From: a virus
Taxonomy: Duplodnaviria > Caudoviricetes
Direction: 5' to 3' (one strand)
Length of the DNA: 64,000 nt
IMG/VR virus record: IMGVR_UViG_3300035517_000383
Span: 32,001 to 96,000 of that record
Within the stretch, counting starts at the first letter, position 1. Each line of letters begins with the position of its first letter. Shown piece after piece: positions 479 to 63,499 of this stretch. Position numbers and translations under genes: made by a program. The notes under the pieces were generated by a model that saw only the letters and a list, made by a program, of their open reading frames with translations, had not been told where the DNA came from and ran no database searches.

Positions 479-724
479 TTAGTTATGAATTGCCGCACTA
501 TCATCTTCAACAATCCACTTCTCTATCTTACTATAAATATCTTCCTCAGAATATACCCAAGTATCTCCAAATTCCAAGGATGCGAGTGCGCCAATAACGC
601 TTTTACCATTAACACGATAGCCATTGGTTTTAGAAACAAGTTCTACTTTACCATTAACCTGCCCGCATATGTTACAAAATTCCTTTATATCTTCGAATCC
701 AGTGAGTTCAATTTTATTATACAT
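479..724 (-). CDS. HPr-like protein lacking the His15 phosphocarrier site
   Basis: RVNGKSVIGALASL matches the HPr Ser46 motif (VNAKSIMGVLSL); 81 aa; GGAGG RBS. Confidence 0.7.
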   Translation of the reverse strand: MYNKIELTGFEDIKEFCNICGQVNGKVELVSKTNGYRVNGKSVIGALASLEFGDTWVYSEEDIYSKIEKWIVEDDSAAIHN

Positions 725-736
725 ATATAATCCTCC

Positions 737-817
737 TTAAAACAAATCAAAAAAACCTTTAAATAATGAATATAGGATATAGAATACCAGACCCAAAATA
801 ACTAGAGTCCAAAGCAT
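737..817 (-). CDS. 26-aa single-TM micropeptide
   Basis: GGAGG RBS then MLWTLVILGLVFYILYSLFKGFFDLF*, directly after a promoter near 850-877. Confidence 0.5.
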   Translation of the reverse strand: MLWTLVILGLVFYILYSLFKGFFDLF

Positions 818-898
818 TAAGAATCCTCCTTTCTTTTAATCTATAATTATTATACCATAGACTTAAGAAAAAGTCAAACTATAATATTAAATTGGAAA

Positions 899-1939
899 TT
901 AGCCTCCAGCTTTTGAATTATACCCATATTCCATGGCTTTATAAAAATTAATCCAATATTTTTCTTTTTCAGCTTGTTCTTCTTTAGAACATACTTCTAC
1001 TATTTCAAAAGAGAAATTTTCTATACCCTCAGAAAACATTGCATCATAAATTTTTCCACTAATTCTATCAATATTACAGCCACGTTTAATATGCTCAATC
1101 CATCTTTTCTTAAAATTTACAGTTCTACCTACATACACTTTTTCATTGGTAATATTAGTAATCTTGTAAATTCCACCACAATCTTTTTTATCACCTAAAA
1201 TTCTATCAAACAATTCATTAGTTTTAGTTTTATAGTAAACTTCATAAAGAATTTTATAAAGAGCTTCTGGTTTTGAAAATTCAAGTGCTAAATTTTTTAG
1301 TTTATAGATGTCTTGCTGCGCCGCCGAGTCAATTTTTATGTGATAAAAATCACGTTGCTGACGAATTTCTTCATCTTGTTTAAAGCGAGCAATAATTTTC
1401 TTTTGTTTATCTTCATATTCTTGAATTTCTTTTTCAAGAGTCTCCCTTTGTAAATTTATTTGCTCGCTAAATTGAAAAAAATTTTCTTTTATTTTATCTT
1501 CTTCATCTTTAAAAGAAGCTTGTAATTGATTTAAACTTTTTTGATATTTATCTCTTTCCTCATAAAGAGCGTTAGTTAATTTAGATTGACGCTTAATTTC
1601 TTCGTCTTTATCCATTTGTTCATAATTTTTTCTAGTAGTGAGATAATTTTCTTCTAATTTCTCTAATTTTCTTTGATATCTTTGTTCTTCAATATTACAC
1701 TTATTTTGTAATTCGTTGGCTTGTTCTCGTAAAGAAGAAATTTTCTCTTCAACTTCTTTTGAGATTTCTTTTTCTAAGCTGTCCTTTTTCTTAGTTAAAT
1801 CTTTGGCTATTTTTTCTTGTTCTTTAGAAAAGTTTCCTTTTATTTTTTTAGAAGGAAGAAGTAGCTAACAGCAATTGAATATTGTTGCACCTAAGCCGGC
1901 GCAAAACAAACAAATTAATATTAATTTAATTGTACTCAT
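899..1939 (-). CDS. N-terminal TM + coiled coil + C-terminal GIY-YIG nuclease domain (1 in-frame TAG)
   Basis: ATG at 1939 overlaps the thyX stop (ATGA); frame is open through one TAG near 1865; GGIYKITN..VYVGRT..RWIEH is the GIY-YIG motif. Confidence 0.75.
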
Positions 1940-2622
1940 GTTTCTTCCCTCTTTGGCTTTCTGCCGCAAGAAAATTTCTCATTACAATATCCATATTCCT
2001 CACATTTAGGCTTAAATACTTTTTCTTCTTCAACTAAAAATTTCCATTCATCAGAATAAAAAGCAAGACTATCAAGAATATCATTCATAAGCTGGCGATA
2101 CTCCCAATAAGCACGAGTACACATTCTTACTCTACTCATATCAATCAAATTTCTTAAATTAGTTCTATAAACAATTTTTGTTTCCATAGCAAGCGGCAAC
2201 ATCATACTAATATCTTCTTTTGGAATATCTAAGTCCTTAAGAATATTAATACTTTTTGAAATTTGTTCCATAGTATTCTGATAAATTATCGCCGCCTCAT
2301 CGCATTTTTTTATAGAAGGTGGTGTTATATAAGAAAAATTATCATTTAAAACATAACGAGTAGATTCTTGAAGAAATGTCATTAATCCCCCTATATGTCT
2401 TGTAAACTCACGAATTACTCTTGCAGAATACCCTGAAATTTCCATATAAATTTGGGGATATTCGAGAACCCTACCATGTCCATTTCTTAAACATTCAAGT
2501 CCACGTTTAAAATTCTTTTCATGGTCTTTGGTGTCTGCATTCCAACATGAGCCTGCCATTTCACCGCACATTGTTAATGGAATATCTGTTGTATCTGTTA
2601 AAATTTTTACTCTCTTTCCCAC
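1936..2622 (-). CDS. thyX: FAD-dependent thymidylate synthase
   Basis: GHGRVLE and EFTRH...QESTRY (RHRX7-8SXR-like) motifs, TNLRNL, AYWEYR. Confidence 0.9.
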   Translation of the reverse strand: MGKRVKILTDTTDIPLTMCGEMAGSCWNADTKDHEKNFKRGLECLRNGHGRVLEYPQIYMEISGYSARVIREFTRHIGGLMTFLQESTRYVLNDNFSYITPPSIKKCDEAAIIYQNTMEQISKSINILKDLDIPKEDISMMLPLAMETKIVYRTNLRNLIDMSRVRMCTRAYWEYRQLMNDILDSLAFYSDEWKFLVEEEKVFKPKCEEYGYCNEKFSCGRKPKREET

Positions 2623-7153: not shown

Positions 7154-8632
7154 TTACTGACATAACCATTCTATATTTGTACAATTTTTAAAAGTATACT
7201 TAGAATTCAGTTTTTCTTCATCGGTAATATATGGATAAGAATTTTCATCCGTATAATTATATAAATAATCAGTAGTTACTATTCCATTTTCTTCAGGCTT
7301 TCTTGCCGCATAATTTCCTCCTGAACCAATATCTGGTGGTAAATATAATAAAGTAGTATTATCATCTTTATCTGGTTCTATTTGAGACTATAAATATTTT
7401 ACACTTCTTAAGTTACCACAATTTGAAAAAGCTTCTGTATCTACCACTGTTAAACTAGTACATTCTGTAAAATCTATTTTATTTAAGCCTGCTGAATTAT
7501 AAAAAGCCTTTTCTCCTATTGTTTTTAAACTAGAAGGAAATACGGTATATCCTTCCTCATTTTTATCTATATTAAGTAGAGCAAGGTTAGACATTTCTGC
7601 AAAAGCATATTTACCTATTTTTTCTAATTTAGGAGAATTAATAGTAATTTCACCACTTATACCACTTCCATAAAAAGCATAGTCACCAATTTCTTTTACA
7701 GAAGACGATATAATAATACCATCAGTAGCATTTACTATGTTTGCAAAATATTCTATAGTTTCTATTGTATCTGAAATTACAAGTTTTCTCATAGTTCCAG
7801 CAGTAAAACATAAGGTTATATCATCTTCATCATTAATAGATGGTAAAGAGGAAGGAGTTATACCGTCTCCAATACCAAGATAATATGAGGAAGATTTATA
7901 TTCATCTTGTGAAGAAAAATATTTAATATTATCTTCCGTTTCTCCATTCAACCAGAAACCAGATTCATCAGCATTATAATAAACCAATCTAGCTGAAATA
8001 CAATTGAATAAATATAATTTATTTTCTATTTCATAATAATAACCCGTTCCTAGTTCCAAAGAAAAATCTGAGCCGCCGCTATTATCTTGAAAGCCTACAA
8101 TTTCACAAGAACCAGCTATATAAACTTTATAACATTCTTCTCCTGATTCTAAAGTAATTATTTCATTATTATAATTTGTCTCTTCTTGTTTCTTTATCAA
8201 TACATAAATTCTTCCAGTTGAATCAATTTGATAATAAATAGTATTCTCATCAACTTCGTGTCCTAAATTTTTCATATATTCTCTAGCAATAGAATTTAAA
8301 GTGTCAATATCCAAAGAAGAAGTATAAGTATTATTATCATCATCTGTGTTATAAATAATAACCAAATCTTTCGAAGAAAAACCTTCTGGAAAAGAACCAT
8401 TAATTATAGTTGGAATTTCTGGAAGTTCTTCTTCTATTTTTTTAATATATTGAAGATATATTGTTTTTATATCTTCTAAATCCATATAAGTAGCTTTAAT
8501 TGTAATAGGCGTTTTTTCATTATAAGTATCATAGTTATTATTATTTGAATCTGTTACAATATTACCAGTCTTATCCGTTATATTTTTAATATCTTTTTTT
8601 TCAAAAATAATTTTATTTTCTTGAATCTTCAC
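7154..8632 (-). CDS. BspA-type leucine-rich-repeat protein, probable virion/adhesion protein (1 TAG)
   Basis: Repeats VKEIGDYAF, LEKIGKYAF, LKTIGEKAF, VDTEAFSNC; frame continues past TAG 7388 to TAA 7154. Confidence 0.75.
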
Positions 8633-8645
8633 TAAATATCACCTC

Positions 8646-10190
8646 TTAGTTAGCTAAAGAATTATTCCAACAACTAGGTATTTCACCTAAATAATATTTT
8701 GTTATTCCATTGTCTAATTTTATATCTTCATATGAGGTATTTGTATTTTTTTCAGAGCCGTATTCTGTTTTTGAAATTGCTACAGTTTTTTTATGATTAC
8801 TGCTATTCAATTCATTTAAATCTTGTGCTGTAAAACTAACGATTTTAGTATTGCTACCTGTTAATGATTCAACAGCATCATATCCATTTAATTCAAATTT
8901 AGTAATATTAATCTTGTCAACATCTACTGTAGCTTCTATTTGAGGAACAATTCTTATTGCACTATAAAATTTTTTAGAACCTTTTTCATCGGATATCTTA
9001 CTTAAAGCTTTAGCTGCACTAATATATCTATATCCATAGTCTTCTTCTCTTGCCGCCGCTAGCTTTGATAAATATTCTGATGGTTGAAAACTAATCTTCT
9101 AAGTATTACCGAGAGTAATATATGTCCAAGTCTCTTGTCCTCTATGATAAAAGAAGATATAAGGATAGTATTCTTTATTATAATAATTATGCTTATAATT
9201 TCTAGCTTTAATTATAGGAAGAATAACCAAATTTGTTTTATTATATTTATCTGCTAAGAATTTAATCCTTTCTAAAACTACATTTGCCGCAATATAACCT
9301 GTATCAAAATTATCGTATTTTTTTTCCAATGAAACTTTTGATATTGGCAATGGTATAACTTCTATGCGAACTTCTGTACAAAATTTCTAAGATTCTATTG
9401 CTGTTGCCGCCCAAAGAAATAAAATGTTTTCCCATAACTAAGAAACTTCGTCAAATAGCTTCTTAAACATATCGGGAATTGGAGCATCTTCATCAAACAA
9501 GTACCCACAAATTACTCCCAAAACCTAAGCAATAACCCAGAAATTTCTATTTAAATCTTCAATTTCAACTCTACGTGTATTTTTAGGCATTATTAAACGT
9601 ATCCACTGATTTATAGACCACTCTGAGGTATCTATAGTTTCAAGAGTTCCATCCTCTTTTCTATAATTAACTTCTTTTGGCATTCGTGTAAACTAAAGAT
9701 TTAAAGGGTTTTTAAGAACACTTAAGGTTTTATCATTTCCGCGTATTTGTATATAACTATTTAAATTAATATTTTTCCATGGTCTGACCCACTCTTCTTT
9801 AGAAAAATTTCGTCCAGCGTCAGCATTTTTTATATCAGCTTTTGTTGCCCATTCCGCACCCTGAATTACACTGTTATCATTTTCTTCTGAATTATCCAAG
9901 TACTTATAAAAATAATTTATTGCTGTTTGAACCGATTCATTCCAAAAACCGTTGACATCTGTCTTATTCTTAAAATTTTCAATATCAACCTAATCAATAT
10001 CACTGTTATTTTCAATAAATTCCATTAAACTATTTTCTTCAAATAATGATTGTATTTCTAGAGAATAGTTCTTCATGTATTGCAAAAAATTCTTCCATGC
10101 GGCCGCACGTTGTTCTGGAGATAATTTTAAAACTTCACTTAATTTATCTTTAGAATTTTCAGTAGTAAATAGTGTTTTTATACTATTCAA
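8646..10190 (-). CDS. large probable virion protein, paralogue C (514 aa, TAG=Gln)
   Basis: ORF pieces 9990, 9693 and 9099 share one frame, separated only by TAG; shares the WIRLIMP..EDLNRNFWV..LWENIL block with paralogues A and B. Confidence 0.75.
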
Positions 10191-10205
10191 ATTAACTCAC
10201 CTCCC

Positions 10206-13200
10206 TTACTTTACGTTGTCATACCAATTAACATTATAACTATTCGTATCATCATTATTCGGTATGTATAAGCCATTACTTTTAAATTTTTCCCAGTTGT
10301 AGCCACTATAATTATTATACCATACCTTATAATCTGTTCTCATAAGGTCAACATTACTAATTTCTCGCTCTGTTGCCTTTACCCATTTTCCATAATTTGT
10401 AGTACTAGGGGTGCCGCCTTGTCTAATCCAAACTCTTTGTGCAAATTCACCATTAGCTTTAAATACTGAAATTGTAACTTGGTCAGTTAGATTTAGGAAA
10501 GGATATCCGTTATTTTTAATAGCAGTATATATATCATAAGCAATTGGATTACTTTCTTTAAATGAACTAATATAAGTATCTGTCAATGTTTTTCTTAAAG
10601 CAGTATAAGAACTAATCCACCAGTCATTATTATTTAAGATATTATTAGAGTCATAAACAGTTTTAGAATTACGATTTGCAGCACTTAATTCTAAATATGT
10701 TCTTTCTGTAAAATTAAAATCTGATTCTGCATTAGTATATAAACGAGTATAAGCGCCAATACCAACATCAATGTGAGTAACGCACCAATTGTCTTTTGTA
10801 AGCCTTGTGTCTCCATCTTTTAAAAGTAATAAAAGCTGGCTGAATTGATTGCCGCCACCAGAGCCTGTTCCCTTGTAAGATGTAATTATATTTTTTCCAT
10901 CTTCATTTTTTGTTTCAAAAACAGATGCAAAAGTGGCAAAATTACTACTAGAATTAGAATTGGTATTGTAATAATCCTTATAATAAATAGAATTATAATT
11001 TCCTACCTTTAATACACATCCTGCCGCAAAACCATATGAATTTCCACCATAATTCTTTAGTTCCAGCTGCTTTAATTCTCCATTTTCAATAACCCAGTAT
11101 TTATAAATATTTGTGTCACTGCCATTTAAATTATATTGTACGCTATGGTCACCATAAAATAATTGTATTAAATTGTTTTTATGTTCAATATAATCACTAT
11201 TAATATAAGCTTCTAAAACAGCCTAATCTGATTTTTGCTAATTTGAAGTTGTATAATTTGCCTTTAAATCATCTAATGAACTAAATTCATAGCTATTGCC
11301 AAGTTGTAAAGGAATTAATTTTAAAGAAGAAAAATTTAAAGTATAGGTTAAAGTATTGGTTACTTTATAATAACTAATCAATTCTCCTTGATAATAACCC
11401 TAAGAAATATCTACTGAATTAATTTCATCATATGAATCTGGGGTAAAATTCCCGTCTTTAATTGTTAAGGTTGCATTAAGATAATTAAATTCTTTTACTA
11501 AATTTTCGTCTTTTCCTATTAACTATCTACCTATATCTTTAATATAAATAGTCAATGAATTAAGCTAAACTTCCTATTTTTCCTCAGAGTAAGAAGATTC
11601 AATTAAAATTTCTTCTCTAAGTAATCCATAAAAACGTCTAGGAGTTTCTTCATAGAAACTACTATTTAAAGGAGAATAATAATCATAAATACTTTCTTGC
11701 TCATTAATTGCATAGATTTTATTTTGTAGCGTTTCATCAGTCGCCAAATCTATATTCCAAAAAGAACCATCAGAAATCAATGGTATTTCAGTTTGCCACT
11801 TATCTGTGTTCCTGTTATATAATAATACATAAGGATAAACAGATTTACTATAATAATTCTCCTCGTAGTTATTTTCTCGAATAATTGGTAAAATACAAAG
11901 ATTGCAGTCTGTATAAGTTTTTACTAAATAATCTAATCTATTCTTTAACGTTGATAAGTCTTCCGTTTTAGTGTTATCAAAATTATCATATTTAAAAAAG
12001 GATTGAAATTCTGAATTTGGAATATATACAGCCTCTGTATGAATTTTTGAATAGTGAGGTTTTTCTATTAAAGATGCTAAATTAGCCCAAAGATATAATA
12101 TATTTTCCCACAATTGTACTACTTCACTTAATAGGTCTTCCGCCGCCTTAGCGTAGGGAGCATTATCTCCGAATAAGTAGCTGCTTACTGCCGCGAGTGT
12201 CTAACCAATAACCCAAAAATTTCTATTTAAATCTTCAACTTCAACAAATCGAGAATTTTTAGGCATAATTAAACGAATCCATTTTTCTAAAAAGTTAGAT
12301 TTCCCTTGTTCTAATTTTTTCTCTTCTTGTTGATTTAACTCATTTTTATCTATATTATTTAAAGATGAATCTAATTCTATATCTTTATAAGTCTTTGCAT
12401 TTAGCTCTTTGCTATAATCATCTTCTAATTTTTTTAGTTCTTCATGAGACATTTTTTTATAATAATCTTTTAAAACCCAAATGTTATTAGTATAATCACA
12501 AAAATATTGAGATAATAAATTCTATTTAATCTAATAGTCTAAACCAGTAATATCACTATAAGGTTGTCGAGTAAATTGTAATTCTTCTTTATTAGAAAGC
12601 ACCTCTTCAATTTTATCATTACCTCGTACTTTACTATATGAATCACCATTAACATTATACCATGGTACTACCCACGGATTTATAACTTCATAAATTGTTT
12701 TATTTTTATATTTTATAGGATATTCCCTTAAGGTTCTGTTTTCTGAAACAAAATTTTTTCCTGCGTCTGCCTCTTTTAAATCTGAAATTCTAAAAGATGT
12801 ACCATTATTATCTTCTATAGTTGTATCTATAGCTCCAAAAAGTAAATCTGAAATTACATTACCATTTTCATCTACATAAATACCAGCAGGAATTTCTTCT
12901 TTTGTATTAGGATTAACCCATTTCTAGTTTTCCCATGCCGCAATACCATCTGGGTCTATATTATTAATAAAATTTACTAAAGCTTTACTTAAAGATTCAT
13001 TCCATACATAGTCAGTCACATTTGATGTAAATCCCGTTGATGAATTTAAATCCCATTTATCAATTTCTTTTAAATAAAAGTCTTGTATTGAATCAAAAAA
13101 ACCTAATTCGCTATTATCACTATCTTTTAAATCAGCATTCTTGTCTATCGTTTTTATTAAAGAACCATTAATATCTTTCTGAGAAGTTCCATTTGTTATA

Positions 13201-13292
13201 TCAAGAATATTTAGAAGCTCTTCCCATAAAGTTTGTAATTCTTCATTAGAAAAATCATCTACAGAACTATTCATCAATTCTTCATATGTCAT
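10206..13292 (-). CDS. large probable virion protein, paralogue B (1028 aa, TAG=Gln)
   Basis: ORF pieces 12924, 12201, 11574 and 10206 share one frame; the junctions checked are TAG; same conserved block as A and C. Confidence 0.75.
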
Positions 13293-16200
13293 TCAATTTC
13301 ACCTCCCACATTTTTAGGTAAGCTTCTAAAATCAAAATTTAAACTATAGAAGCCTTCAGGACTTTCAACCCCGTATTCTTTCATATTCTCTTTTGTATAT
13401 GACCAATATGCAGTATTACCATTAAGTTTATTTATTAATTGTTTTCCACCAATAAATTCTCCAGAAATTTCACCATCTACAATTTTATATTTATAACTAC
13501 ATACATATCTGTTTTCTGGTGTCGTTAATGTAAATGCTCTGTCTATTACTGTTAAATAAAATTCTTTGGAATTAATTTTTCCTGCTTCATCAAAACTAAA
13601 AGTTTCATTGTTAGCATTACATAAAATTGTACCATTATATATTCCGCTAGTAACGGAGTCAACATACGAATTATTAGAATGAGATAAATAAATTCTAATA
13701 TCATTGGGGTTAGGATTAGTTGGTAAATACATAAGGCCAACGTTATTTTCATCTGTATAACGACCAGCAACAGTTTTATTGCTATTATTAGTATATTTAC
13801 CTGAATCTGCTAAATAGCCTAAATATTTTGATATAGGGACTCCCGGCACAGAAGTAACAGCGGGATATATACAATCCGCCTAATCTTGCCAATAGGGGTC
13901 TATAGTTATGCCCTTCCATTTTGGAGCTAAGTTAAAATAGTGCATATCTACTGTTCCATCTCTAAATTTCTTAATTATACCAAGATACTTACAAACTTCA
14001 AAAAGGTTTGATTTGTTTTTTCCATTTTCATCACCTTGGCTCTTTATAAAATATTTAAAAATTAAAATTTTTCCAGTTCCATTTTCTAATTCAACTGCTT
14101 TTTCTTCAAGTTTTTTCTTCATTGTCTCTTCATATTCATACGCTTCTGGATTATAAGCCCCCTCTTCGTACTAGTCTGTTATATCAATTCCAACAAATTC
14201 ATAACTACTACCCAAATCAATTTTTTCCAAAACCTCTGTTAAATAGCTATTACACTCTCCTAAATAATAACCCTTTTCTATCTAAATAGAAGATGCCGTT
14301 ATATCAGCTATATCTGGAAAAATTTCGTTTAAAGAAGTCGTTGAGTCTTTTTCTGAGAAATTATCATTTTGCCAAAGAGCCAAAGTGTTTGAATTATTCT
14401 AAATAAAAAGCTCTCGTGATACATCATAAAAAGCCAAAGTAAAATCTTTAATTTTTATAATTCCATCTTCATATTCAGCTTTTATTGTTGGAATTGTTCT
14501 ATCCGCCGCAAAATAATAACCTCCATTACATTGCTAACGAGTTCCCAATAATGAAGCCTAAAAATTTTGAACAGACTGATAATGGTTATTATACTTTCTA
14601 AAGCCAGAGATTCTTCTTGTTATTCTATCGTTCACATCTGATAAATCAATTTTAGTAGAATGAGAATAGCTTGTATAACAATAAGGGTCTAAACTCTCTA
14701 TTGTATCACAAAATCTTTTCCATCCATCTGGAGTATTTGAATATTCATTATTTTCACAGGCTGCTATAAATTGTAATATATAACTAGAATATATTGCATC
14801 AATTGTTGCGCCGCCGCTAGCATAATTTAATAATTCAATTTGTTTCTTAGTAAGATTTTCTGGGCTTTCCGTTTGAATTTGAGCATAATAAGAAAGCACA
14901 TTATTCGCATCTTCTTTATCTACGATGCCATTATCATTGATATCAGGGAAATATATATATTTAGAACCCTTAACTTCTGAAAAAATAGTGTAAGCAACTT
15001 TATTACTATTTCTATTATAAAAAATAACGCCGGGATAGATAACTGTATTATAATAATTATGTTTATAATTATTAAATCTAATTTCTGGAACTACAACTAA
15101 ATTACTTTCACTATACTAGTCTTTTAAATATTTTAATCTATTCCAACATTTTTCTAAGGTCTATCTTTTTGTCTATTCGTTAATGAAAGTGCTGTCATTA
15201 TCAAAATTATCAAATTTTATATAACTTTGAATTTCATCATTAGTAATAGGCATGAAAATCGTTTGAATATCTGTATATTCTTTTCTTTGTGATAGTGCGG
15301 CAGCAGCAATCCAAAGGAACAATACATTTTGCCATAACTATAAAATTTCATTTAATAAGCCTTTTAATGCTTTTATTAAAGGAGAATCTTCACTAAACAA
15401 ATAAGAACTAATGCCAGATAAAATTTGAGCAACAACCCAAAAATTTCTATCTAAATCTTCTACCTCAAAATGTCTTTGATACATTGGCATAATTAATCTT
15501 ATCCATTTTTCAAAAACATCTTGTCCATTAATTATTTTTTTAGGTATATACATTTTATTATTTTCAGTACTATACAAATACCAACCCTCTGGAGTATTTG
15601 GATATTCACTTTCGATAAAGCTAAGAACCTAAGAAGCATACAAAGCATTTCCACTTTGCTTATTTGCTATGCCACCACCATCAAGTAATAATTGCTCTTG
15701 TTTGCTTGTTAAAGAAGTTTCTTTTCCAGTACCATAATCAGCATAATATTGCTCAATTAAAGAAGCATCATTTTGAGATAAAACTCCATCCCCATCTAAA
15801 TCTGGGAATGCATAAGTAATTATAATTCCTGCTATATCTAAAATAGTTGACACAAGAATACCAGAAGCATCTTCTATTTCATTAATTTTTGCAGAAGAAA
15901 AATCTGAATCAATTAGTTGTTTCAAGTAATTATCAAAATTATCCTTAAACCACTAGATTTTAATTTTTAAAATTTCTTCATATTCCTCATCCGTAATTGA
16001 TATAGATTCTAAATTCTTTTCTATAGCTTTTTCCGCCCATGTCTTAATTTTCTATTCAATATTCTCATCACCATTATTTATATAGAAATAGGGCTTACGG
16101 GTAAATTGAAGATTTTTACTACTTTGTAATGTTGAAGAAATACTATCTTCATCTCTTACTTCTTTATAAGTTTCTAAATCTATATTAAACCATGGCCGCA

Positions 16201-16795
16201 CCCATTTACCATCTTTGTCAAAACTATTTCCAGCATTGCCATTGATGATATCCTAAATTCTAAAAGAAACTTTAGTTCCATTTGAATTAACTCCCATTGG
16301 TATTGCACCACCAGTGTCGCCAGATGAGATTTGTTTATCTGTTGGGTCATTTCCTTCAATTTTTTTAATACTATCAGGAAATAAGTGCTGCAAACAATAA
16401 GAAATTAGCTTACTAACAGACTCATTCCAATAATACTCCGATTCGCTATTAGTTCCATTTAAAGTACTGTTATCAAGATTTTCATTTTTATCTAACTTAT
16501 CAGAAGTATAATATTTTTCTATTAAATCATTTACAATATTATCTAAATCTGCTTTTTCATTAATATAATAAAAAACAGATTTATTAGACATATCGTCTTC
16601 TCGAACTCCGTAATGAGATAAATCAATTTCTTCATTTTTTAAATACTCTATTAAATACTTCCAAAAATTATCTTGTTCTTCCTCACTTAAACCTTGGAAG
16701 GCCGCACCACAGAAATTTTCATAAGTAATTTCGGGATTATCATTGCTATTAATTAATTTATCTATAAGTTCATTAAAAATATTTTGTTGACTCAT
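13289..16795 (-). CDS. large probable virion protein, paralogue A (1168 aa, TAG=Gln), with two dockerin-like inserts
   Basis: Six ORF pieces in one frame joined at TAG; PDLDGDGVLSQNDASLIEQYYA and PDINDNGIVDKEDANNVLSYYA Ca-loop/helix motifs. Confidence 0.75.
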
Positions 16796-16821
16796 TTATT
16801 ATCACCACCTGTGATATTATT

Positions 16822-17124
16822 TTAAAGAGGGTATTTAAATTTTGTTATTATTTCTTTAAAAGTGTCCCAGCCGTACATAGCGATAAAAGCAACAACAAAA
16901 CTACCTACAATTCCTAATAAAATTAATTTTAAACTAAGTGTACAAAAAATTAAAATAAAACCAATAGTTAAAATTAAAGAAATGATTATAACTAAAGCTT
17001 TAGTAGGAAAGCTATTGGGGATAATCTTTTTTAAAACCTCAGTAACAATACTAACTAAAGCTGCAAGTATTCCTATTACTCCTAAAGAAGTACTCGCTGA
17101 AATACCAAAAACAGTTTCTAACAT
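16822..17124 (-). CDS. putative holin (3 TM)
   Basis: Three hydrophobic segments; next to the endolysin; GGAGG RBS favours the ATG at 17124. Confidence 0.65.
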   Translation of the reverse strand: MLETVFGISASTSLGVIGILAALVSIVTEVLKKIIPNSFPTKALVIIISLILTIGFILIFCTLSLKLILLGIVGSFVVAFIAMYGWDTFKEIITKFKYPL

Positions 17125-17237
17125 ATTAACGCCTCCTCTGTAAAATATTGTAATAATTTCAAGAATAAAACCCATTCTTGACCTTTAATAAAAAGTAAAA
17201 AATTAAGGGAAACACTCTAATGTTCCCCTTAATATTC

Positions 17238-44419: not shown

Positions 44420-44460
44420 TCCGAAGTCTTATAGTTTTAAATAAAAAGGAGGAGAAATAA

Positions 44461-45701: not shown

Positions 45702-45705
45702 TTTT

Positions 45706-45735
45706 TAAGGTAGGAGATATTCTCCTACCTTTTTT
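45706..45735 (+). terminator. intrinsic terminator
   Basis: AAGGTAGGAGA-TAT-TCTCCTACCTT followed by TTTT. Confidence 0.75.
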
Positions 45736-45754
45736 ATTTATTGGGAGGAATTAA

Positions 45755-47250
45755 ATGACTTATATTATTGATACGTGTGTACTTTTAGATTATCCTCAAA
45801 TTGTAGAAGATAAGAATAATCAATTAATTATTGCCACCAGTGTATTAAAGGAACTTGATGGATTAAAAAAACATAACAACCCAGAAACTGCTGCGGCCGC
45901 ACGACGTGCCGCTGTTTATATTTCTAGGAATTTAGACAATTTAGACTGGTATTCAGATTGTGAGAATTGGAATATTCCAGTTGATGACCAACTACTTAGA
46001 ATTACTAAAGAACTTTCAGGAATTTTATTAACTAACGATGTCTATTTAAAAGTTAAAGCTCTAATTGATGGAATTAATACTAAGGGATATGGTAATAAAG
46101 ATGATTATATTGGTGTAGAGTATTGGTATTTAAATTTTGATAGTAATTATTATAATGCTCGTTTAGCTCATGTTTTTGAGACTGGTAAAAAGCCTGAAGA
46201 AATTAAACTCTATGAAAATCAATATTTAATTGTAAAAAATCTTGACTCAATCGTAATGACAAGACATCAAGAAGAAGATTATGAGATTATGGCCTGCTTT
46301 GTTTATCGTAATGGCAGACTTATGCAAATTGATAATCTTAAAATTAAAAATAAGTGGATTAATTGTATTGTTCCAAAAAATGCTGAACAAATGTGTTTGT
46401 TTGAAGCTCTTAATAACAAAGATATTAATATACTCTATGCAGGAGGCAAATTTGGAACGGGTTATTGATTAGCTCCCTTATATAGTGATATATATTGAAT
46501 AACGTGGTTAATTACTGGAAAACCTAAGTCTTTTAGATATGGCAATCAGCAGCCAAGTCACTTAGTTAGTGAAAAGGTTCAACGACTATCTCGGAAGAGA
46601 GTAGAATTTTATTAATTCTAAATTACCACGCTTCTATTATTAGAAGAAGATATAGTCTACTCCGACCATTAAATTGGTGTTAAAGTATCTCGAAAGAGAC
46701 GGTATATAGGAAGTCCTTTATTTTAAATAATTTTGCATTGCAAGAGTTGGAAAAAGAAAGAATAAAGAAAATTGTTTATATTCCTAATAATTCTTATGTT
46801 GAAAATTCTATGGAACTAGGATTCCTTCCGGGTTCTGATTTTGAGAAGTTAACCCCCTCTATTGGTCCGTTAATTGACCTTATCGGAATTGATGCGGTTC
46901 AAGATATGATTTCTAGAGAACAGCTCGAAATTGTTCCTACTGGATTTATCAGAGGACGTAGTTTTGAAGATTCTATAGTAATTGTAAATGAAGCTCAAAA
47001 CCTTACAGAAGACCATATAAAACTTTTAATTGCACGTTGCGGCGAAGGCACAAGAATTCTATTTGACGGAGATTATAAACAAGCTGATTCTTTTATTTTT
47101 AGAAATAGAAATGGATTAAAGTTACTTCTAAATTTAAGAAAATCTCCTTTTTATGCAAAAATGTTTTCTACTGTTAAATTGGTTATTACAGAAAGAAGTT
47201 CTACCGCTCAGGCGGCTGAATACCTTGACCAATTAGCATCGGAAATATAA
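45755..47250 (+). CDS. phoH: PIN-PhoH (PhoH2-like) protein, spliced 45755-46462 + 46711-47250
   Basis: IIDTCVLL..ELDGLK..DD..TND PIN domain; GKFGTG|KS; LGFLPG, RGRSF, NEAQN, GDYKQ. Confidence 0.88.
46463..46710 (+). mobile_element. group I intron without ORF in the Walker A of phoH
   Basis: U/G boundaries; GGCAATCAGCAG, CAACGACTA and AAGATATAGTC core elements. Confidence 0.88.
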
Positions 47251-47365
47251 AAATATAGTGGTACAATCTTATTTATTGTACCACTTAAAATAATATATTG
47301 ACTTTTTTATAAAAATATGGTATAATATATATAGAAAATAAAGAAGAAGGGTGAATAAAAATTAG

Positions 47366-48091
47366 ATGAAATTATCAGAAGAAACAATTTTAAAAATTCC
47401 AATTCTTTATAAAAAATTGGGAACAAAAAAACAAGTGGCGGAACAATTAAATATATCACCCACGACAGTTTCAAAATATTTAAATCTTTTTGAGGCGGCC
47501 GCACCGCAAGAAAAAACAAAGAAAGAAAAAAAGAAAAGAATTAAAATAACAGATGAAATTATTGAAAAAATAAATCAAGTTTATAGTGAACAAAAGAATT
47601 TAACAAAGACAGCAGAAATTATAGGTTGTTCTATTCAAACAATTAAAAAATATTTGACAGAAGAAAATCTTAATATTAGTGAATCCCAAAAAGATGACAG
47701 AGATGCATTGTTCTTCTATATTTATAATCTATTTGGACAATATTCAGATGACAAACCTGTTAGTGACTGGAATCTTGTTCAGATGCAAAATTTTAAAAAG
47801 CAGGGAATGTCTTACAAGGGACAATTACTTACTTTAAAATATTTTTATGAAGTAAAGAAAAATTCAATTGAAAAATCAAATGGTTCGATTGGAATAATTA
47901 AATATGTATGGGATGAAGCGGAAAGATATTATACTCAGCAAGCAGAAAAAGCAGAAGAATTTAATAAAGCAATTCAGCGGCAACTTGAACAAGACAGACT
48001 TTCAATTAAATATAATCCAGAAGATTATGTCAATAAAAGAAGAAGAAAGAAAACTATTGACCTAAATTCATTAGGAGGTGAAAGTGGTTGA
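47366..48091 (+). CDS. double-HTH protein, putative replication initiator/helicase loader
   Basis: Two HTH units; C-terminal LKYFY..SIGII.Y domain; coupled to the helicase gene. Confidence 0.55.
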   Translation: MKLSEETILKIPILYKKLGTKKQVAEQLNISPTTVSKYLNLFEAAAPQEKTKKEKKKRIKITDEIIEKINQVYSEQKNLTKTAEIIGCSIQTIKKYLTEENLNISESQKDDRDALFFYIYNLFGQYSDDKPVSDWNLVQMQNFKKQGMSYKGQLLTLKYFYEVKKNSIEKSNGSIGIIKYVWDEAERYYTQQAEKAEEFNKAIQRQLEQDRLSIKYNPEDYVNKRRRKKTIDLNSLGGESG

Positions 48092-49776
48092 TTCAAATTG
48101 ATAGACGTACCATAATCCAAATTTTTGGCAGTTTGATGAGCCGTCCCAATCTTTTAAGTGATGTTGATAAATACCACCTAGAACCTAATGACTTTCATAA
48201 TCAGTTTGATAAATATGTTTTTTCTGCAATTTATAATCTCTATGTAAACGGAGCAGAAATTATTCATACTGTTGATATAGATAATTTTCTTCAATCTAAT
48301 ACATTAGCTAAAGATTTATTTGAAAAAGAAAACGGAGTAGCTTTTCTTCAAGATTGTGAAACATATTGCGAACCTAATAACTTTTCTTATTATTACAATA
48401 AACTAAAAAAGATTAATCTATTAAGAGAGTTACAGAGAACAGGAAAAGATATTAGTAAATTCTATTCAGAGGATTCTTTAGATGAAAATCATGATAGTAT
48501 AAATATGAATTTTGAAAAATTAAGTACTTCTGATATTGTTAATGCTTTAAAAGGGGAAATTGCTGGACTAGAAAGAAAGTACGTTCTTAATTCTGTTGTT
48601 GAAGAAAGTAATGCCTATGATGGTATAAGAGACTTGATTCAAGACCTAAAAACAGTTCCAGAAATTGGTTGTCCACTTCAAGGTGAAATATTTGATACAA
48701 TTGCTCGTGGCGGCCGCAAGGGAAAAATGTATTTACGTTCAGCGGCAACATCAGTGGGTAAATCAAGAAGTATGGTTGGTGATGCTTGTAATATTGCTTA
48801 TCCAATTAGATATGAACCGACTTATGGTAAGTGGATTGCTACAGGACATCATGAAAAAGTTCTTTATATAATGACAGAACAAGACCCCGCGGAAATTCAA
48901 ACGATGATTTTGGCGTATCTTACTGGATATAATGAGGAAATGTTTCTATATGGAACATATCAAGAAGAGCATATGGATAGAATTATGAAAGCTATTGATA
49001 TTATGGAAAAATATAAAGATAATATGTTATTTGCTAGAGTTCCAGACCCATGTGCCTCAGTAATTAAAAACTTGTTTAGACGTTATGCTTTACAATATGG
49101 AGTAGAAAATTTTTTCTATGATTATATTTTTTCTTCTCCTGCAATGCTAGATGAATATAGAGATTTAAAACTTCCAGAACACGTTTGTTTAAGATTGTTT
49201 ACAACAGCCTTAAAAAATCTTGCGGTTGAACTTGATGTTTTTATCATGACTTCCACTCAGATTAGCGGAGACGAAGAAGAAGGTTTTAGAGATTATAAAA
49301 AAATTAGAGCTTCTAAATCAATAGCAGACCTTGTAGACTTGGGTTGTATTATGTCAAGACCATCTATAGATGAATTAAAGATGGTTGCTAATTTTCAAAA
49401 GAATTTTGGATTCAGTCCAAATTGCGTTACTGATATTTACAAAAACAGACGTGGCCGCTGGAATATGGTTAGAATTTGGTCTAGAAAAGATTTAGGAACG
49501 TGTAGAACTTATGACTTATTTGTAACAACAGCAGATAATAAAATTATAGAAGATTTTCAAATTATTGATTTTGAGTGTCTTAAGACTAAAGAAATGGATG
49601 AATTAGAAGATTTTTATAATAATGGAGTTGTTTCTGATGAAGTAGTAGAGGATTTATTAATGAATATTTCTAGAGAAGAGCCAGAAAGTCTTTTGGAATC
49701 AGTTACTAATGCTTTTGGAGATTTTGAAAAGAAAAAAGAAAAAATAAAAGAAACAGATTTGAGTGATTTATTATGA
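48088..49776 (+). CDS. DnaB-like replicative helicase
   Basis: SAATSVGKSR Walker A; TE, FYDYI, STQ, KNRRG. Confidence 0.85.
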   Translation: MIQIDRRTIIQIFGSLMSRPNLLSDVDKYHLEPNDFHNQFDKYVFSAIYNLYVNGAEIIHTVDIDNFLQSNTLAKDLFEKENGVAFLQDCETYCEPNNFSYYYNKLKKINLLRELQRTGKDISKFYSEDSLDENHDSINMNFEKLSTSDIVNALKGEIAGLERKYVLNSVVEESNAYDGIRDLIQDLKTVPEIGCPLQGEIFDTIARGGRKGKMYLRSAATSVGKSRSMVGDACNIAYPIRYEPTYGKWIATGHHEKVLYIMTEQDPAEIQTMILAYLTGYNEEMFLYGTYQEEHMDRIMKAIDIMEKYKDNMLFARVPDPCASVIKNLFRRYALQYGVENFFYDYIFSSPAMLDEYRDLKLPEHVCLRLFTTALKNLAVELDVFIMTSTQISGDEEEGFRDYKKIRASKSIADLVDLGCIMSRPSIDELKMVANFQKNFGFSPNCVTDIYKNRRGRWNMVRIWSRKDLGTCRTYDLFVTTADNKIIEDFQIIDFECLKTKEMDELEDFYNNGVVSDEVVEDLLMNISREEPESLLESVTNAFGDFEKKKEKIKETDLSDLL

Positions 49777-50831
49777 TTGATTTAAAAGAATTGGAACAAA
49801 GTTTAACAGACGAACGTATAATTGAATTAGTTACTGAATTAGGTTCTGATGATTATAAAGATACACCAAACGCTATAATATTTAAAACAATATGTCATAA
49901 CATAGATTCTACAGAAGCAAGTTTAAAACTTTATTATTATAAAAATACTAAAAGATTTAAATGTTATACAGATTGCGGTGATACATTTAATATATATGAG
50001 CTGTTTAGGCGGCGATATGAGTTATTAGGAATAGAATATGATTTTTATAAAGATATAATTCTTAAAATCTCAGAAAACAATCTGGTGTTTCAAGAAAAAG
50101 GTTTTTACAACAAATATGAAAGTGTTTATGAGAAATATAAGAAAAATAGCCCTAAAGTAAATATATCTATTCTACATCCTTCTTTATTAAATACTTTTAC
50201 TTTCTATCCAACACAAGAATGGTTAAATGATGGAATTAGTATTCAATCTATGAGAGAATATAACATAAAATATTCAGTATCTGAAAACAAAGTTGTTATT
50301 CCTCATTACGATAAAGACGGATATTTAATTGGAATCCGTGGACGTGCCCTTAATGAAGAAGATATTGAGCTTGGTAAGTATATGCCAATTCAAATCGAGG
50401 GAAAATTTTATTCTCATCCTCTTGGATATAATCTTTATGGATTAAATTTTGTTAAAGGTAATATTAAGAAAAATAAAATTGCAATAGTATATGAATCGGA
50501 AAAAGCTGTTCTTCAATATAATACAATGTTTGGACATCAAAATAATATTGCTGTTGCGGCTTGTGGTAGCAGTTTTCATGATTATTAGATGAAATTGCTT
50601 GTGGCCGCTGGTGCAGAAAAAGTAATAATTGCTTTTGATAAAGAAGGGGAGGATTGGAAATCGAAAGATAGATATTATAATAAATTAAAAAAAATATGTG
50701 AACGCTACAAAAATATTTGTAATATGGGTTTTATATTTGATTTTCAAAATCTACTGGCTTTAAAAGATAGTCCAACAGACAAAGGTAAAGATATTTTTTT
50801 AAAATTATATAAAAAGACAATATGGATATAA
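49773..50831 (+). CDS. DNA primase (1 TAG inside TOPRIM)
   Basis: CH..CYTDC Zn finger, IPH..GIRGR, LYG, YESEK; after the TAG, AFDKE and KDSP in the same frame. Confidence 0.85.
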
Positions 50832-50851
50832 TAGGAGGAATTTTCTTAAAA

Positions 50852-52597
50852 ATGAAGTATATACAACGAACAAAGACAAATATAGATAATGATTTTTTTA
50901 GGAATTTGTTAATTGATAGAAAGATTATTGATTCTTCTAGAGAAAGTTATGAAAATTTTATAAGACCTAGAAAAGATTTTTTATTAGAACCAACCCTGCT
51001 AGATAATATGGAAGAAGGTTTTAAATTATTTAAAAAACATTTAGATAATAATAGTACGATATATTTTGTAGTTGACTGCGACGTAGACGGCTTTACTTCT
51101 TCATCAGTACTCATTAATTATTTTAATGACAATTTGAAAGAAAAATATCCTAATGTTGAAATTCAATATCATGTACCAGAAGCAAAGGCGCATGGACTTT
51201 CAACAATTATGGAAAATTTTACTAATAAAAAGATATGTGATTTAATTATATGTGCGGATTCTTCAAGCAATGATTTTGAAGAGCATAAGATACTTAAAGA
51301 TTTAGGGTATGATATATTGGTTTTAGACCATCATATTACATCTCATTATAGTGAAAATGCAGTTGTAATTAACAATCAGTTATCAGAAAATTACTCTAAT
51401 AAGAATTTAAGTGGCGTTGGGGTTGTTTATAAATTTCTTCAATATTGTGATGAGCAATTTAATTTTAATAATGTCGCTGATAATTATTTAGATTTAGTTG
51501 CATTCGGTGAAATAAGTGATATGATGGAAATGACAACTTTAGAAAATAGATATATTTGTAAATATGGACTTGACCACATAAATAATCAATTTATGAAAGA
51601 TTTAATTGAAAAGCAATCATACTCGCTTGGAGATAATCTTACTCAAATTGGTGTAGCATTTTATTTAACTCCTCTTGTTAATGCTCTTATTCGAATAGGC
51701 TCTCAAACTGAAAAAGAAAACCTATTTAAAGCTTTTATTGATGGTCTTGAAATTGTTCCTTCTACGAAACGCGGCGACAAGGGTAATTTTGAAACAATTA
51801 GTGTACAGAGCGTAAGAAACTGCGTTAATGCTAAAGCAAAACAAAATAGAGAAAAAGAAAAAGCAATGGAAATTCTTGATATTCAAATTATTGAGAATTG
51901 TTTGGATGACAATAAAATATTAATTCTCAACGCTGATGAATTAGATGTTCCTAATTCATTGACAGGATTGATAGCAATGGGGGTTAGTGCTAAATATAAG
52001 AAACCAGTGCTGCTTGGTAGAACAAGTCCAGATGGATTTTTAAAAGGCTCAGGTCGTGGCCGTAATGGAAGCGAATTACAGGACTTTAGACAATTTCTTT
52101 TAGATAGTGGCTATATGGATTTTGCAGAAGGACATTCTCAAGCTTTTGGACAATCAATTAAAATTTCCAATATTGATAAGCTAACTAATTATGCTAATTA
52201 CAAATTGGCGGATATCAACTTCAACGAAGGATTCTATGAAGCTGATTTTGTTGTTAATGGCAGTTATCCTGCACTATCTACCTTAATTGAGGAAATGGAT
52301 AAAGGAAAAACTCTGTGGTCGCAAGGTAATGATGAGCCAATTATTATTATAAAAAATATTCAGGTTAATAAAAATGAAATTTCTATAATTGGCAAAAATC
52401 ATGATACTATAAGGCTTGTTTATAATGGAATTACTTATATAAAATTTAAAGCAGAAGAAATAATTAAAATGCTTGATAATATTAGTGATGATTTAATAAT
52501 TACAATTGCTGGTAGAGCAAATATAAATGAATGGGGCGGCCAGAGAAAGCCGCAGATATTAGCAGACGAGATGGAAATTATTGATGTTTCGTTTTAA
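50852..52597 (+). CDS. recJ: RecJ-like ssDNA exonuclease (DHH)
   Basis: DCDVDG, HG, DHH, GSGR, GHSQAFG; RBS favours ATG 50852. Confidence 0.88.
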   Translation: MKYIQRTKTNIDNDFFRNLLIDRKIIDSSRESYENFIRPRKDFLLEPTLLDNMEEGFKLFKKHLDNNSTIYFVVDCDVDGFTSSSVLINYFNDNLKEKYPNVEIQYHVPEAKAHGLSTIMENFTNKKICDLIICADSSSNDFEEHKILKDLGYDILVLDHHITSHYSENAVVINNQLSENYSNKNLSGVGVVYKFLQYCDEQFNFNNVADNYLDLVAFGEISDMMEMTTLENRYICKYGLDHINNQFMKDLIEKQSYSLGDNLTQIGVAFYLTPLVNALIRIGSQTEKENLFKAFIDGLEIVPSTKRGDKGNFETISVQSVRNCVNAKAKQNREKEKAMEILDIQIIENCLDDNKILILNADELDVPNSLTGLIAMGVSAKYKKPVLLGRTSPDGFLKGSGRGRNGSELQDFRQFLLDSGYMDFAEGHSQAFGQSIKISNIDKLTNYANYKLADINFNEGFYEADFVVNGSYPALSTLIEEMDKGKTLWSQGNDEPIIIIKNIQVNKNEISIIGKNHDTIRLVYNGITYIKFKAEEIIKMLDNISDDLIITIAGRANINEWGGQRKPQILADEMEIIDVSF

Positions 52598-61541: not shown

Positions 61542-61572
61542 AAAGGGAGCAGAATAATCTGTTCCCTTTTCT
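61542..61572. terminator. bidirectional intrinsic terminator between convergent genes
   Basis: AAAAGGGAGCAGA-ATAA-TCTGTTCCCTTTT with A/T tails on both sides. Confidence 0.75.
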
Positions 61573-61573
61573 T

Positions 61574-61909
61574 TTACATTGATTTTAATTTGTCTATATG
61601 TCTTTTAATTATATCCTTTTCAGCACGAGTGCCAGTATAATTATAAAGTTCATAAATTAATTTATCTATATGGTCCATAATTTTATTAATCTGCTCATCT
61701 TGACTTTCAGTTAAAAAATGTTCGCCATGAACTTCTTCTGATTCTACCCAATCTTCATATTTCTTAGCCTTAACTTCATAATAATGGGCCTCTTTAATAT
61801 CTTTATAAATATCTATTAGTTTATAGGTAGTATCAAGATTAGAAGATGTTAAACCTTTATCCCCAATGTTTTCGAGTTCCTTACAAACTCTTTCTTCAAG
61901 TCTCTGCAT
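61574..61909 (-). CDS. hypothetical protein of the conserved right-end cluster
   Basis: ELE.I..GL....LD..YKLIDIYKDI; GGAG RBS favours ATG 61909. Confidence 0.6.
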   Translation of the reverse strand: MQRLEERVCKELENIGDKGLTSSNLDTTYKLIDIYKDIKEAHYYEVKAKKYEDWVESEEVHGEHFLTESQDEQINKIMDHIDKLIYELYNYTGTRAEKDIIKRHIDKLKSM

Positions 61910-62321
61910 TAGTCTCATCTCCTTCATTATCTACTTTTGCAGTTGTAGTAGTTATTGGTAATGCTGCGGCCGCACCGCACATGGAACAATTTGATGTCCC
62001 CAGCATTTTAAAAACTCCAGACTAAATATTAGTATGAACTCTTACAGAATATCTTGTACGGCTATGAATTTGGCAAGCTTTCACATTCGTACAATCATTA
62101 TTTACTAATGGATATGCTGTAGTACCAGTTCCTATTGTAATAACTGCATTTGCGGCGATAGTTGTAGTTAATGGAATTGACTACCCAACAACTATACAGT
62201 ATTTTTCATTATTCCCATAACTACCAGCTGGAATATTAATAATCAATTGACCATTGGAATAAGTAACACTTTGCGAAATAATTAAATGCTCACAAAGGCA
62301 TTTAGTAGCTGAGCAACTCAT
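61896..62321 (-). CDS. Cys-rich hypothetical protein (2 TAG)
   Basis: MSCSATKCLCEHLIISQ..IPAGSY..KYCIVVG*SIP; missed by the ORF track. Confidence 0.7.
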
Positions 62322-62331
62322 AAAGCATCAC

Positions 62332-63499
62332 TTAGCAGCAGCCGCAAGAATTTCCATTTGTAGGGAATACTCCGCCAAGGGGAATTGATTGATACGGTGA
62401 GGTTACTAGGTATGAAGGCTAAGGTGTGGGTTGAAGAGCATTTATAATATTACTTGTTTGTGAAAGTTGTGACAACTGGAAATTAGCGGACTGTAATTGA
62501 GTTCTTAAATTATCCATTTCAGACTGAACCATATGATTAATAATTCTATCTGTATTAGCATCTGCATTAGTCTTTAATTCACAAGCGGCCTGTGCAATAG
62601 CATAATTAAGTTTTTCTTGTCCGTTCTGAACGCCGCAGAATCCAGACTGCATTTGAGATTGAATATTATTGAATGCGCTCTGATTATTGAAATTAGACTG
62701 CATAATTGACTCTCTTGTCTCGCAGCAACAATCTTTCATGTTGTAGTTTGTATTAGCAATCGCACTTTGAATGTTGTCAAAACCGCAATTTAGTGACTGC
62801 TGAATTCCATTGACTCCAGAATTTACTGCGTTCTGTAATGCGAAATTATTTTGCATTGCATTAATTTCACTATTATAAGAATTTGCTTGTATCTGCGAAC
62901 CAATATTAGCAAGTTCTCCACTCATAGCATAGAAGCCTTGACATAAACCATTTTGTGCACCTCTAATGCTATTATTAAGACTATTGAAATTAAAGGCATC
63001 TGTCATGCCTTGCTGAGTTGCTGGTGTGCAACAAGCATTATATCCATTATTTTCATTGTTAGGAATTATTACTGTATTTGGACCACCGTTTCCACCACGA
63101 TTTCCGTTCCATCCTCCTACTGCAAAGAAAAGAATTAATATAATCACCCCAATATGTTATCATATAAGCTTTTTATCTTATATTTCTATTACTTTCTATT
63201 CGTAATAGTTCAGCATAACTTTTCAACTATTTTTAATTAAATAGTGCCGCGGCCTCGTGGAAACATTATATCTTTTCAGTTTCTATGCGTTGCCCCTGAC
63301 TTAACTTTGTTAAGTCTTCGGTTCGGATTAGCATTTCAGCCTTCCCGTTTAATTCCGCGGTTATTCAATATAAGTTACCTTATAAGGTGGCAGGAGTCTA
63401 CCATGCGCCACTGGCACCGCCAAAAGTATCATTACTATTCTGTCCATTTTTGTTTTGCAATGCCAAAGCATCTGCTACTGTTAAACCATTTTCTCCCAT
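62332..63499 (-). CDS. Gly/Asn/Cys-rich membrane-anchored protein, spliced 63499-63400 + 63149-62332 (1 TAG)
   Basis: Splicing restores GAWWVIILILFFAVGGW; DCCCET; read-through of TAG 62419 gives PTPQPSYLVTSPY..SCGCC. Confidence 0.75.
63150..63399 (-). mobile_element. group I intron without ORF
   Basis: U/G boundaries; GCTAATCCG, CAACGCATA and AAGTTATGCTGAAC; 3' end closely resembles the 44549 intron. Confidence 0.8.

Follow-up and report, generated by a model that had tools for sequence, protein, structure and literature searches.

The pentamer GCSGC (GCGGC or GCCGC) is highly over-represented in the genome of a virus of the Caudoviricetes, known from the IMG/VR record IMGVR_UViG_3300035517_000383, which is 152,102 bp long and has a CheckV completeness of 92% and a GC content of 30%. 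We have studied bases 32,001-96,000 of this record, a stretch of 64 kb with a GC content of 29.5% that we refer to as the window, together with the rest of the record and the relatives of the phage. Our results confirm that the enrichment is real and strong, and they show that it is found across a whole phage clade and is independent of a phage methyltransferase, Vsr, MutS and DpdA. We propose that GCSGC is a highly iterated short palindrome of this clade, made by a drive that is biased towards creation of the word, and that its copies are not individually functional sites. We give this reading a probability of roughly 0.45.

The GCSGC excess and its DNA-level nature

A first-pass annotation of the window, made by eye, had put the number of GCSGC sites at about 120 where ten or fewer would be expected. 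Counting gave 130 sites, against an expectation of ~9 from either a mononucleotide or a first-order Markov model, so that the observed/expected ratio (O/E) is 15.8 for GCCGC and 13.6 for GCGGC.

492-63253, no strand: 130 dispersed GCSGC pentamers (63 GCGGC and 67 GCCGC), ~2 per kb, in genes and spacers

In the whole genome there are 315 sites where 24.5 are expected (O/E 12.9; 2.07 per kb, or 2,071 per Mb), and GCSGC ranks first among all pentamers by enrichment. The excess is specific to this word. The 30 remaining GC-only pentamers are mostly at 0.2- to 2-fold, and the exceptions, at 4- to 8-fold, are words that overlap GCSGC (CCGCC, CGCCG, GGCCG); equal enrichment of other GC-only pentamers, which would have undone the claim, was thus not observed. 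Since CGCGC/GCGCG stands at only 0.9-fold in the genome, we reject a general thermodynamic preference for stable GC words. An enrichment of palindromes in general was likewise ruled out (GGCC 0.95-fold, GCGC 0.86-fold, CCGG 0.43-fold, CGCG 0.58-fold, GATC 0). GCWGC, at 1.5-fold, is not enriched in the genome, and words one change away from GCSGC are not depleted there (O/E 0.8-2.0). The flanks of the word are weak and reverse-complement symmetric, roughly K-GCSGC-M, with A disfavoured at position -1 (15%). The six-base extensions are symmetric as well, GCGGCA/TGCCGC (130) and GCCGCA/TGCGGC (152) both being enriched.

The signal resides in the DNA and not in translation, as the annotation had proposed. 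Sites are found on either strand, in each of the three frames and outside genes, and the excess reaches 13-fold in the non-coding (intergenic) DNA of the genome. The same genome purges other words: GATC is absent where ~425 copies are expected, CCWGG is almost absent (O/E of 0.04 for CCAGG) and CCGG is at 0.43-fold. The loss of GATC and CCWGG is a strong restriction-type avoidance that exists beside the accumulation of GCSGC, in line with the earlier remark that phages usually avoid such sites.

Codon-aware analysis depends on the genetic code. We called genes with TAG read as Gln because open-frame coverage of the genome then rises from 73% (table 11) to 90%. Over genome bases 40,001-50,000 (8000-18000 of the window) the rise is from 71% to 99%, and in a related genome (G006) it is from 77% to 91%. 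From these frames, TAG appears to code for an amino acid in this genome. Synonymous codons were then permuted inside each gene, which preserves each protein and the codon usage of each gene. Genome-wide, the sense strands carry 188 GCGGC against 46.7±5.5 after shuffling and 108 GCCGC against 25.5±4.6; for the genes of the window the values are 84 against 18.1±3.7 and 45 against 12.1±3.0. The enrichment is therefore not lost under codon-aware shuffling, and the residual excess of GCGGC and GCCGC, respectively, is 4.0- and 4.2-fold in the genome and 4.6- and 3.7-fold in the window.

How coding sequences make room for the word is seen in their codon choices, and these agree with the earlier observation that sites arise by synonymous choice. 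An Ala that precedes Ala has GCG or GCC as its codon 74% of the time and 15% of the time in other contexts; for Gly following NGC the codon is GGC in 66% against 11%, and for Cys preceding GGC it is TGC in 85% against 22%. GCSGC is carried by 154 of the 207 Ala-Ala dipeptides in the genome. Moreover, the dipeptide itself is affected, its O/E from Ala content being 2.03 in this genome, 0.55 in the bin of a candidate host and 0.17 in relatives that avoid GCNGC (both described below).

The word is unevenly oriented along the window, which is divided into two arms of opposite gene direction.

492-22690, minus-strand genes: left arm; plus strand mostly GCCGC (38 against 14 GCGGC up to 23,300), that is, GCGGC in sense; observed against shuffled, 37 against 7.5 for sense GCGGC and 14 against 4.1 for sense GCCGC
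22855-63253, plus-strand genes: right arm; plus strand mostly GCGGC (49 against 29 GCCGC beyond 23,300); observed against shuffled, 44 against 9.6 and 27 against 7.0

The right arm holds the replication module (ligase, NrdD, GyrB/GyrA, DnaB, a RecJ-like protein and DnaE). The flip in polarity that had been noticed near 23.3 kb is therefore present in the counts, while the idea that polarity is a property of the signal itself is not supported, as the orientations are about equally enriched after shuffling. Because the fold excess is alike in both orientations, the strand bias and the flip are explained by coding constraints.

Sites are scattered at random. The gaps between them are exponential, with a mean of 521 bp, a coefficient of variation of 0.91 and a longest gap of 2.5 kb, and three related genomes also show Poisson spacing (coefficients of variation of 0.91-1.08 over the four genomes). 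The regular spacing that had been suggested as a check is absent, and no preferred distance between sites was found besides the 3-base overlap in GCSGCSGC. The spacing data bear no sign of selection for even coverage or of cooperative pair distances. Two overlapping GCSGC form the octamer GCGGCCGC, for which the seven positions given by the annotation were all exact.

10099-10106, and also at 29894, 30540, 45893, 47495, 48710 and 61966, no strand: GCGGCCGC octamer (NotI site)
32000-34129, plus strand: nrdD, with one GCSGC site, at 32634

The octamer is present 8 times in the genome where its two 7-mers predict 8.2 copies, so that the NotI sites are overlapping pentamers without an enrichment of their own. 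The single site in nrdD and the lack of sites in the non-coding RNA had been counted correctly. Neither deficit is significant under a Poisson model (1 against 4.4 expected, P ~0.07, and 0 against 1.2, P ~0.3). When single genes were searched for the low occupancy that would mark recent acquisition, none was significant, in a test of little power.

A clade-wide word and a probably accessory methyltransferase

To place the phage among its relatives we sampled 80 IMG/VR loci from a GyrA alignment search, 34-81% identical. In scans for close relatives with other single proteins, DnaE returned one distant locus and the methylase none. The clade consists of large, AT-rich, TAG-recoded phages of the gut and rumen, and GCSGC iteration is clade-wide: most of the 80 loci have the word at 5- to 14-fold, and sites number ~1.3-4 per kb in genomes that range in GC content from 29% to 40%. 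In a large subclade (L053-L090 and others), runs of GCGC or CG are found instead of GCSGC or together with it, with GCGC/CGCGC at 4- to 19-fold. Where GCGC is iterated, CGCGC is at 8- to 19-fold and the seven-base CG run CGCGCGC at 50- to 80-fold, again with symmetric flanks. In L021, L074, L075, L086, L087, L090 and L098 GCNGC is nearly purged (O/E 0-0.6), and several such lineages retain GCGC runs. These GCNGC-avoiding relatives have 15 Ala-Ala dipeptides where 89 are expected.

The window encodes one enzyme that could be suspected of writing or marking the word.

25795-26763, plus strand: C5 cytosine DNA methyltransferase (PF00145, E 1e-54), the sole PF00145 match in the genome; GCSGC sites at 26024 and 26394

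No accompanying restriction enzyme was found, and searches of the genome for RE_Bsp6I, Vsr (PF03852), MutS and TGT/DpdA found none of them. The closest relative of solved structure is M.HhaI (E 1e-23), solved structures being uninformative on specificity. Phage homologues in GenBank are at most 38% identical. The bacterial homologues that we examined belong to Fusobacterium prophages that have no endonucleases; a further homologue is located on a large phage-like contig. Metagenomic contigs with a methylase 47-64% identical are also large and phage-like, several of them are syntenic with this genome, and they have GCSGC at 7- to 14-fold.

The first-pass annotation had suggested that GCSGC is a self-tag written by this methyltransferase. 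The distribution of the enzyme speaks against it. PF00145 is present in 2 of 31 related records, 23 of which are at least 90% complete, and PF01555 in 3 of 24; the enriched records without them number 29 of 31 and 21 of 24, respectively. Three complete or nearly complete genomes that are methylase-free have 355-370 GCSGC each, with an O/E of 8-9. In one methylase-free relative the codon-aware excess is 3.4- and 2.8-fold, the non-coding excess is 16.5-fold and 63% of Ala-Ala dipeptides carry the word. Since the enriched relatives mostly lack a methylase, and those without one are still enriched, we reject the phage methylase as the cause of the enrichment.

The reverse causation is more plausible. 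A GCSGC-rich genome that is exposed to GCNGC-type restriction would either purge the word or gain a protective methylase. In relative L021, a 37%-identical methylase homologue occupies the same position beside gyrB, with a Bsp6I-family (GCNGC) endonuclease directly upstream, so that L021:9433-10939 is a complete GCNGC-type restriction-modification pair within the phage replication module; L021 avoids GCNGC, with 5 sites against 20 expected. The methylase of the closest relative is 34% identical and lies at a different genome location, and the two methylases were therefore probably acquired independently. Judging from these comparisons, the C5 methyltransferase is probably an accessory gene and possibly a protective one. 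It would be a sporadic secondary gain, which most plausibly shields the abundant GCSGC from GCNGC-type restriction.

Two side observations concern relative L007. An IS607-like pair, a serine resolvase and an OrfB/TnpB Cas12f-like gene, lies at L007:4918-6749, ~3 kb upstream of its methylase, and is missing from the near-identical L009; the two loci have too few differences for a single-nucleotide polymorphism test. L007 also has a weak Dam-family Pfam match and tolerates GATC (25 against 56).

As for the host, NrdD was compared with species genomes and matched one locus, a 106-kb contig of a clade phage in a 1.4-Mb bin labelled 'uncultured Clostridia'. This contig (C15 of bin G032, with loci L131, L142 and L143) either contaminates the bin or points to the host. 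The bacterial contigs of the bin (112 kb, GC 28-30%) have 11 GCSGC against 13 expected, and the phage contig has 39-43 per 20 kb, the link between the two being co-binning alone. If, on that link, the bin is the host, the word is intrinsic to the phage. GATC is under-represented in both the bacterial contigs and the phage contig. The C-terminal domain of the lysin, used as a query to infer the host, gave no result.

Creation and loss of sites, and what could drive them

The relatives allow us to ask how sites come and go. In the three methylase-free genomes, where the inner pair is 96% identical and the outgroup 93%, we polarised 3,770 substitutions over 114,202 aligned positions. Null rates were set for each mutation type and class (synonymous, non-synonymous and non-coding), and 200 simulated histories reproduce the errors of parsimony. 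GCSGC was gained 36 times against 15.6±4.4 in the simulations, which we report as a 2.2-fold excess and which 0 of the 200 simulations reach, and was lost 60 times against 60.9±7.6. Unrelated control words were gained at 1.0- to 1.3-fold, and words overlapping the extended motif at 1.8- to 2.0-fold. Synonymous gains were raised at positions 2, 3 and 5 of the word, the remaining positions having too few events. Through changes at the centre base, sites were gained 15 times where 3.3 were expected and lost 15 times where 18.5 were, and these rates predict that 64% of Ala-Ala dipeptides carry the word, where 63% do. Gain above the neutral rate together with loss near it is the signature of a creation bias.

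GCSGC appears wherever one cheap change permits, and its copies are scattered at random and turned over fast. We argue that they are the product of a weak genome-wide process biased towards creation of the word. Such a process would amount to a molecular drive of the repair or mutation type, its scaled strength being ~1.5 per site. The agent would be some activity in replication, recombination or repair that is intrinsic to the clade and reads GC-S-GC as a twofold-symmetric target; in the sister lineages the target would be GCGC. The wider picture, in which an intrinsic and methylation-independent drive writes GCSGC (GCGC runs in the sisters) and doubles Ala-Ala while host restriction decides which word survives, is tentative, and we would place it somewhat short of an even chance.

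Several points weigh against a creation-biased drive. The counts are modest, so that selection or biased gene conversion, for which a gain of ~1.8- to 2.1-fold and a loss of ~0.4- to 0.5-fold are predicted, is only marginally disfavoured, and deleterious losses that are transient on tip branches could conceal a real protection of sites. Gains (36) are fewer than losses (60) despite stable totals across the three genomes; some gains must therefore have been missed, or the lineages are off equilibrium. The dynamics come from relatives ~53% identical in GyrA, the studied genome being without a close sequenced relative, and the host assignment comes from co-binning alone. No enzyme or protein recognising GCSGC was identified, which leaves the agent of the drive hypothetical, and an unrecognised family of modification enzymes may be involved. 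Finally, every clade member that we examined retains at least one GC-only palindromic word, which hints at a function and not only at a by-product.

The last point leads to the alternative that survives best, weak selection for site density. Here a conserved, twofold-symmetric phage protein that binds or processes DNA would need GCSGC about every 500 bp (GCGC in the sisters) for replication, recombination, condensation or nuclease control, with a small benefit per site and a scaled coefficient of ~1.5. It would explain why at least one of the two words is kept, also in members that have lost the other to host restriction, why density converges on the same range over GC contents of 29-40%, why the word and its flanks are palindromic and why amino-acid sequences are bent to accommodate it. 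The gain that it predicts is within error of the 2.2-fold observed, but the losses are neutral where it predicts them to be about halved or fewer. Spacing is Poisson, long gaps are not deficient in three of the four genomes, the GCNGC-avoiding lineages manage entirely without GCSGC, and no candidate protein was identified. We regard selection for density as doubtful, though to be taken seriously.

A methylation-linked origin is improbable. In this case GCSGC would be the target of a C5 methyltransferase of the phage or its host, and would build up because it serves as a self-tag, or else by the action of methyl-directed or very-short-patch repair. What recommends it is the orphan C5 methyltransferase of this genome, the pairing of its homologue with a Bsp6I-type (GCNGC) endonuclease, the enrichment in all relatives with 47-64%-identical orthologues, and the case of Cyanothece PCC 7822, whose over-represented GCsGC has been tied to GCsGC methyltransferases (Elhai 2015; PMC4390886). 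The enriched relatives without PF00145, most of them also without PF01555, the failure to find Vsr or MutS in the genome and the lack of enrichment in the bin of the candidate host all speak against it. So do the substitutions themselves: in the methylase-free relatives C>T changes at the cytosines of GCSGC numbered 9 against 11 expected at position 2 and 3 against 10.4 at position 5, so that neither cytosine is a hotspot or clearly protected, which argues against 5-methylcytosine at these sites and against very-short-patch repair. Such repair does not account for the raised gains at the centre base either, and neighbour words one change away are not depleted, nor is GCWGC enriched.

Slimmer still is the chance of a Chi-like protection, in which a host nuclease of AddAB/RecBCD type or a phage recombination nuclease reads GCGGC, and sites in both orientations shield linear replication or packaging intermediates. 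Chi sites of Firmicutes contain GCGG (AGCGG in Bacillus) or GCGCG (GCGCGTG in Lactococcus), and so resemble both words of the clade; like Chi, GCSGC is short, GC-rich and very abundant, and the phage encodes a recombination set of its own (AAA_24 and a RecJ-like protein). However, the orientations are equal after the codon-aware shuffle and the flanks and both six-base extensions are symmetric, so that a polar Chi-like or translocation mark, as had been suggested in the annotation, is unlikely. In addition, the A that precedes GCGG in Bacillus is disfavoured here, the bin of the candidate host, a host suggested by co-binning, is not enriched and existing sites are not conserved. That the excess simply follows from composition, codon usage or amino-acid content, without any process at the DNA level, can practically be dismissed, for although amino-acid and codon usage absorb about a third of the raw 13-fold excess (~72 sites expected from shuffling against 24 from composition), the 4-fold excess that is left lies more than 15 standard deviations over the shuffle mean, non-coding DNA has the full 13-fold, other GC-only pentamers are not enriched, and codon usage is itself context-dependent.

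Comparison with known systems

The closest published precedent for the iterated GCSGC is found in cyanobacteria, where highly iterated palindromes (HIP) include GCsGC in Cyanothece PCC 7822 and HIP1, GCGATCGC; they occur at 1,000-2,000 per Mb, always with cognate methyltransferases, and a ratchet of methyl-directed repair has been proposed for them (Elhai 2015; PMC4390886). The phage word is the same as that of Cyanothece, GC-only, palindromic and an outlier in over-representation, its density of ~2,000 per Mb is in the HIP range, and it is spread over genes and spacers. The phage system differs from the cyanobacterial one in that its carrier is a clade of viruses, a cognate methyltransferase is not obligatory (29 of 31 records are without the C5 methylase) and no MutS or Vsr was found in the genome. 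HIP1 is reported to be periodic or quasi-periodic and evolutionarily conserved (PMC5861425, PMC13756078), whereas the phage sites have Poisson spacing and are lost at the neutral rate. The literature that we searched held no published viral case of iterated GCSGC. The annotation's term 'candidate undescribed system' is fair for viruses, the cyanobacterial GCsGC being a close precedent.

A second parallel is CCWGG in E. coli. Bhagwat and McClelland are said to have shown in 1992 that its enrichment is driven by very-short-patch repair (Dcm/Vsr). In that case a short palindromic word that a methylase targets becomes more numerous through a repair bias and not through selection on each site, which is what we envisage for the phage; the effect in E. 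coli is small where that in the phage is 13-fold, and the phage is without a vsr gene. Moreover, the gains in its methylase-free relatives are raised at positions 2, 3 and 5, the centre base included, and not only at one cytosine, and neighbour words that contain T show no depletion. Chi sites of RecBCD/AddAB are similar in being short, GC-rich, highly over-represented and of a role at the DNA level, but they are asymmetric and polar, while the phage word and its flanks are symmetric, show no residual polarity and are not conserved.

GCNGC is the target of the Fnu4HI/Bsp6I restriction-modification systems. GCSGC is the target of others (CglI/NgoAVII; PMC4267653). GCSGC is a classical type II target, and some relatives avoid GCNGC altogether, one of them carrying the Bsp6I-type endonuclease beside its methylase. 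Compared with the site avoidance seen in phages, the sign is reversed in the phage studied here, whose genome purges GATC and CCWGG and yet accumulates GCSGC. Short palindromes are words that phages are known to delete, but across this clade one of them has built up almost to saturation, and the proteome is altered as a result: Ala-Ala is 2-fold over-represented in this genome and 6-fold under-represented in relatives that are forced to avoid GCNGC.

New in this study are the test of methylase-independence, the kinetics of gain and loss, the effect on the proteome and the contrast with the candidate host; the mechanism is what we infer from them. Work on the function of cyanobacterial HIP continues, and the explanation published for them involves methyltransferases; the phage clade has the same word without that link. 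As many closely related genomes of the clade exist, gains and losses can be counted directly, and creation can be split from maintenance (gain 2.2-fold, loss 1.0-fold), which narrows the candidate mechanisms. If our reading is true, this would be the first viral system of highly iterated palindromes in the literature searched, and the unsolved HIP problem would gain a model that is tractable and evolves fast. The iterated word may also explain why some members of the clade have taken up orphan methylases. In practice, words of this kind distort k-mer-based host prediction and binning, and they provide dense NotI, Fnu4HI and BisI sites.

Two further features of the genome were observed. Positions 44856-52597 of the window hold a recombination/replication set composed of AAA_24 (Sak4-like), PIN/PhoH, an HTH protein, a DnaB-like helicase and a RecJ-like exonuclease (DHH and RecJ_OB). 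The right end of the contig, which lies beyond the window, carries at genome positions 151,225-152,102 an array of ~880 bp made of the 7-bp tandem repeats CTGAATG, CTGAATT and CTGAAAT, which includes 57 copies of GAATGCTGAA, all on one strand, and extends to the end of the record.

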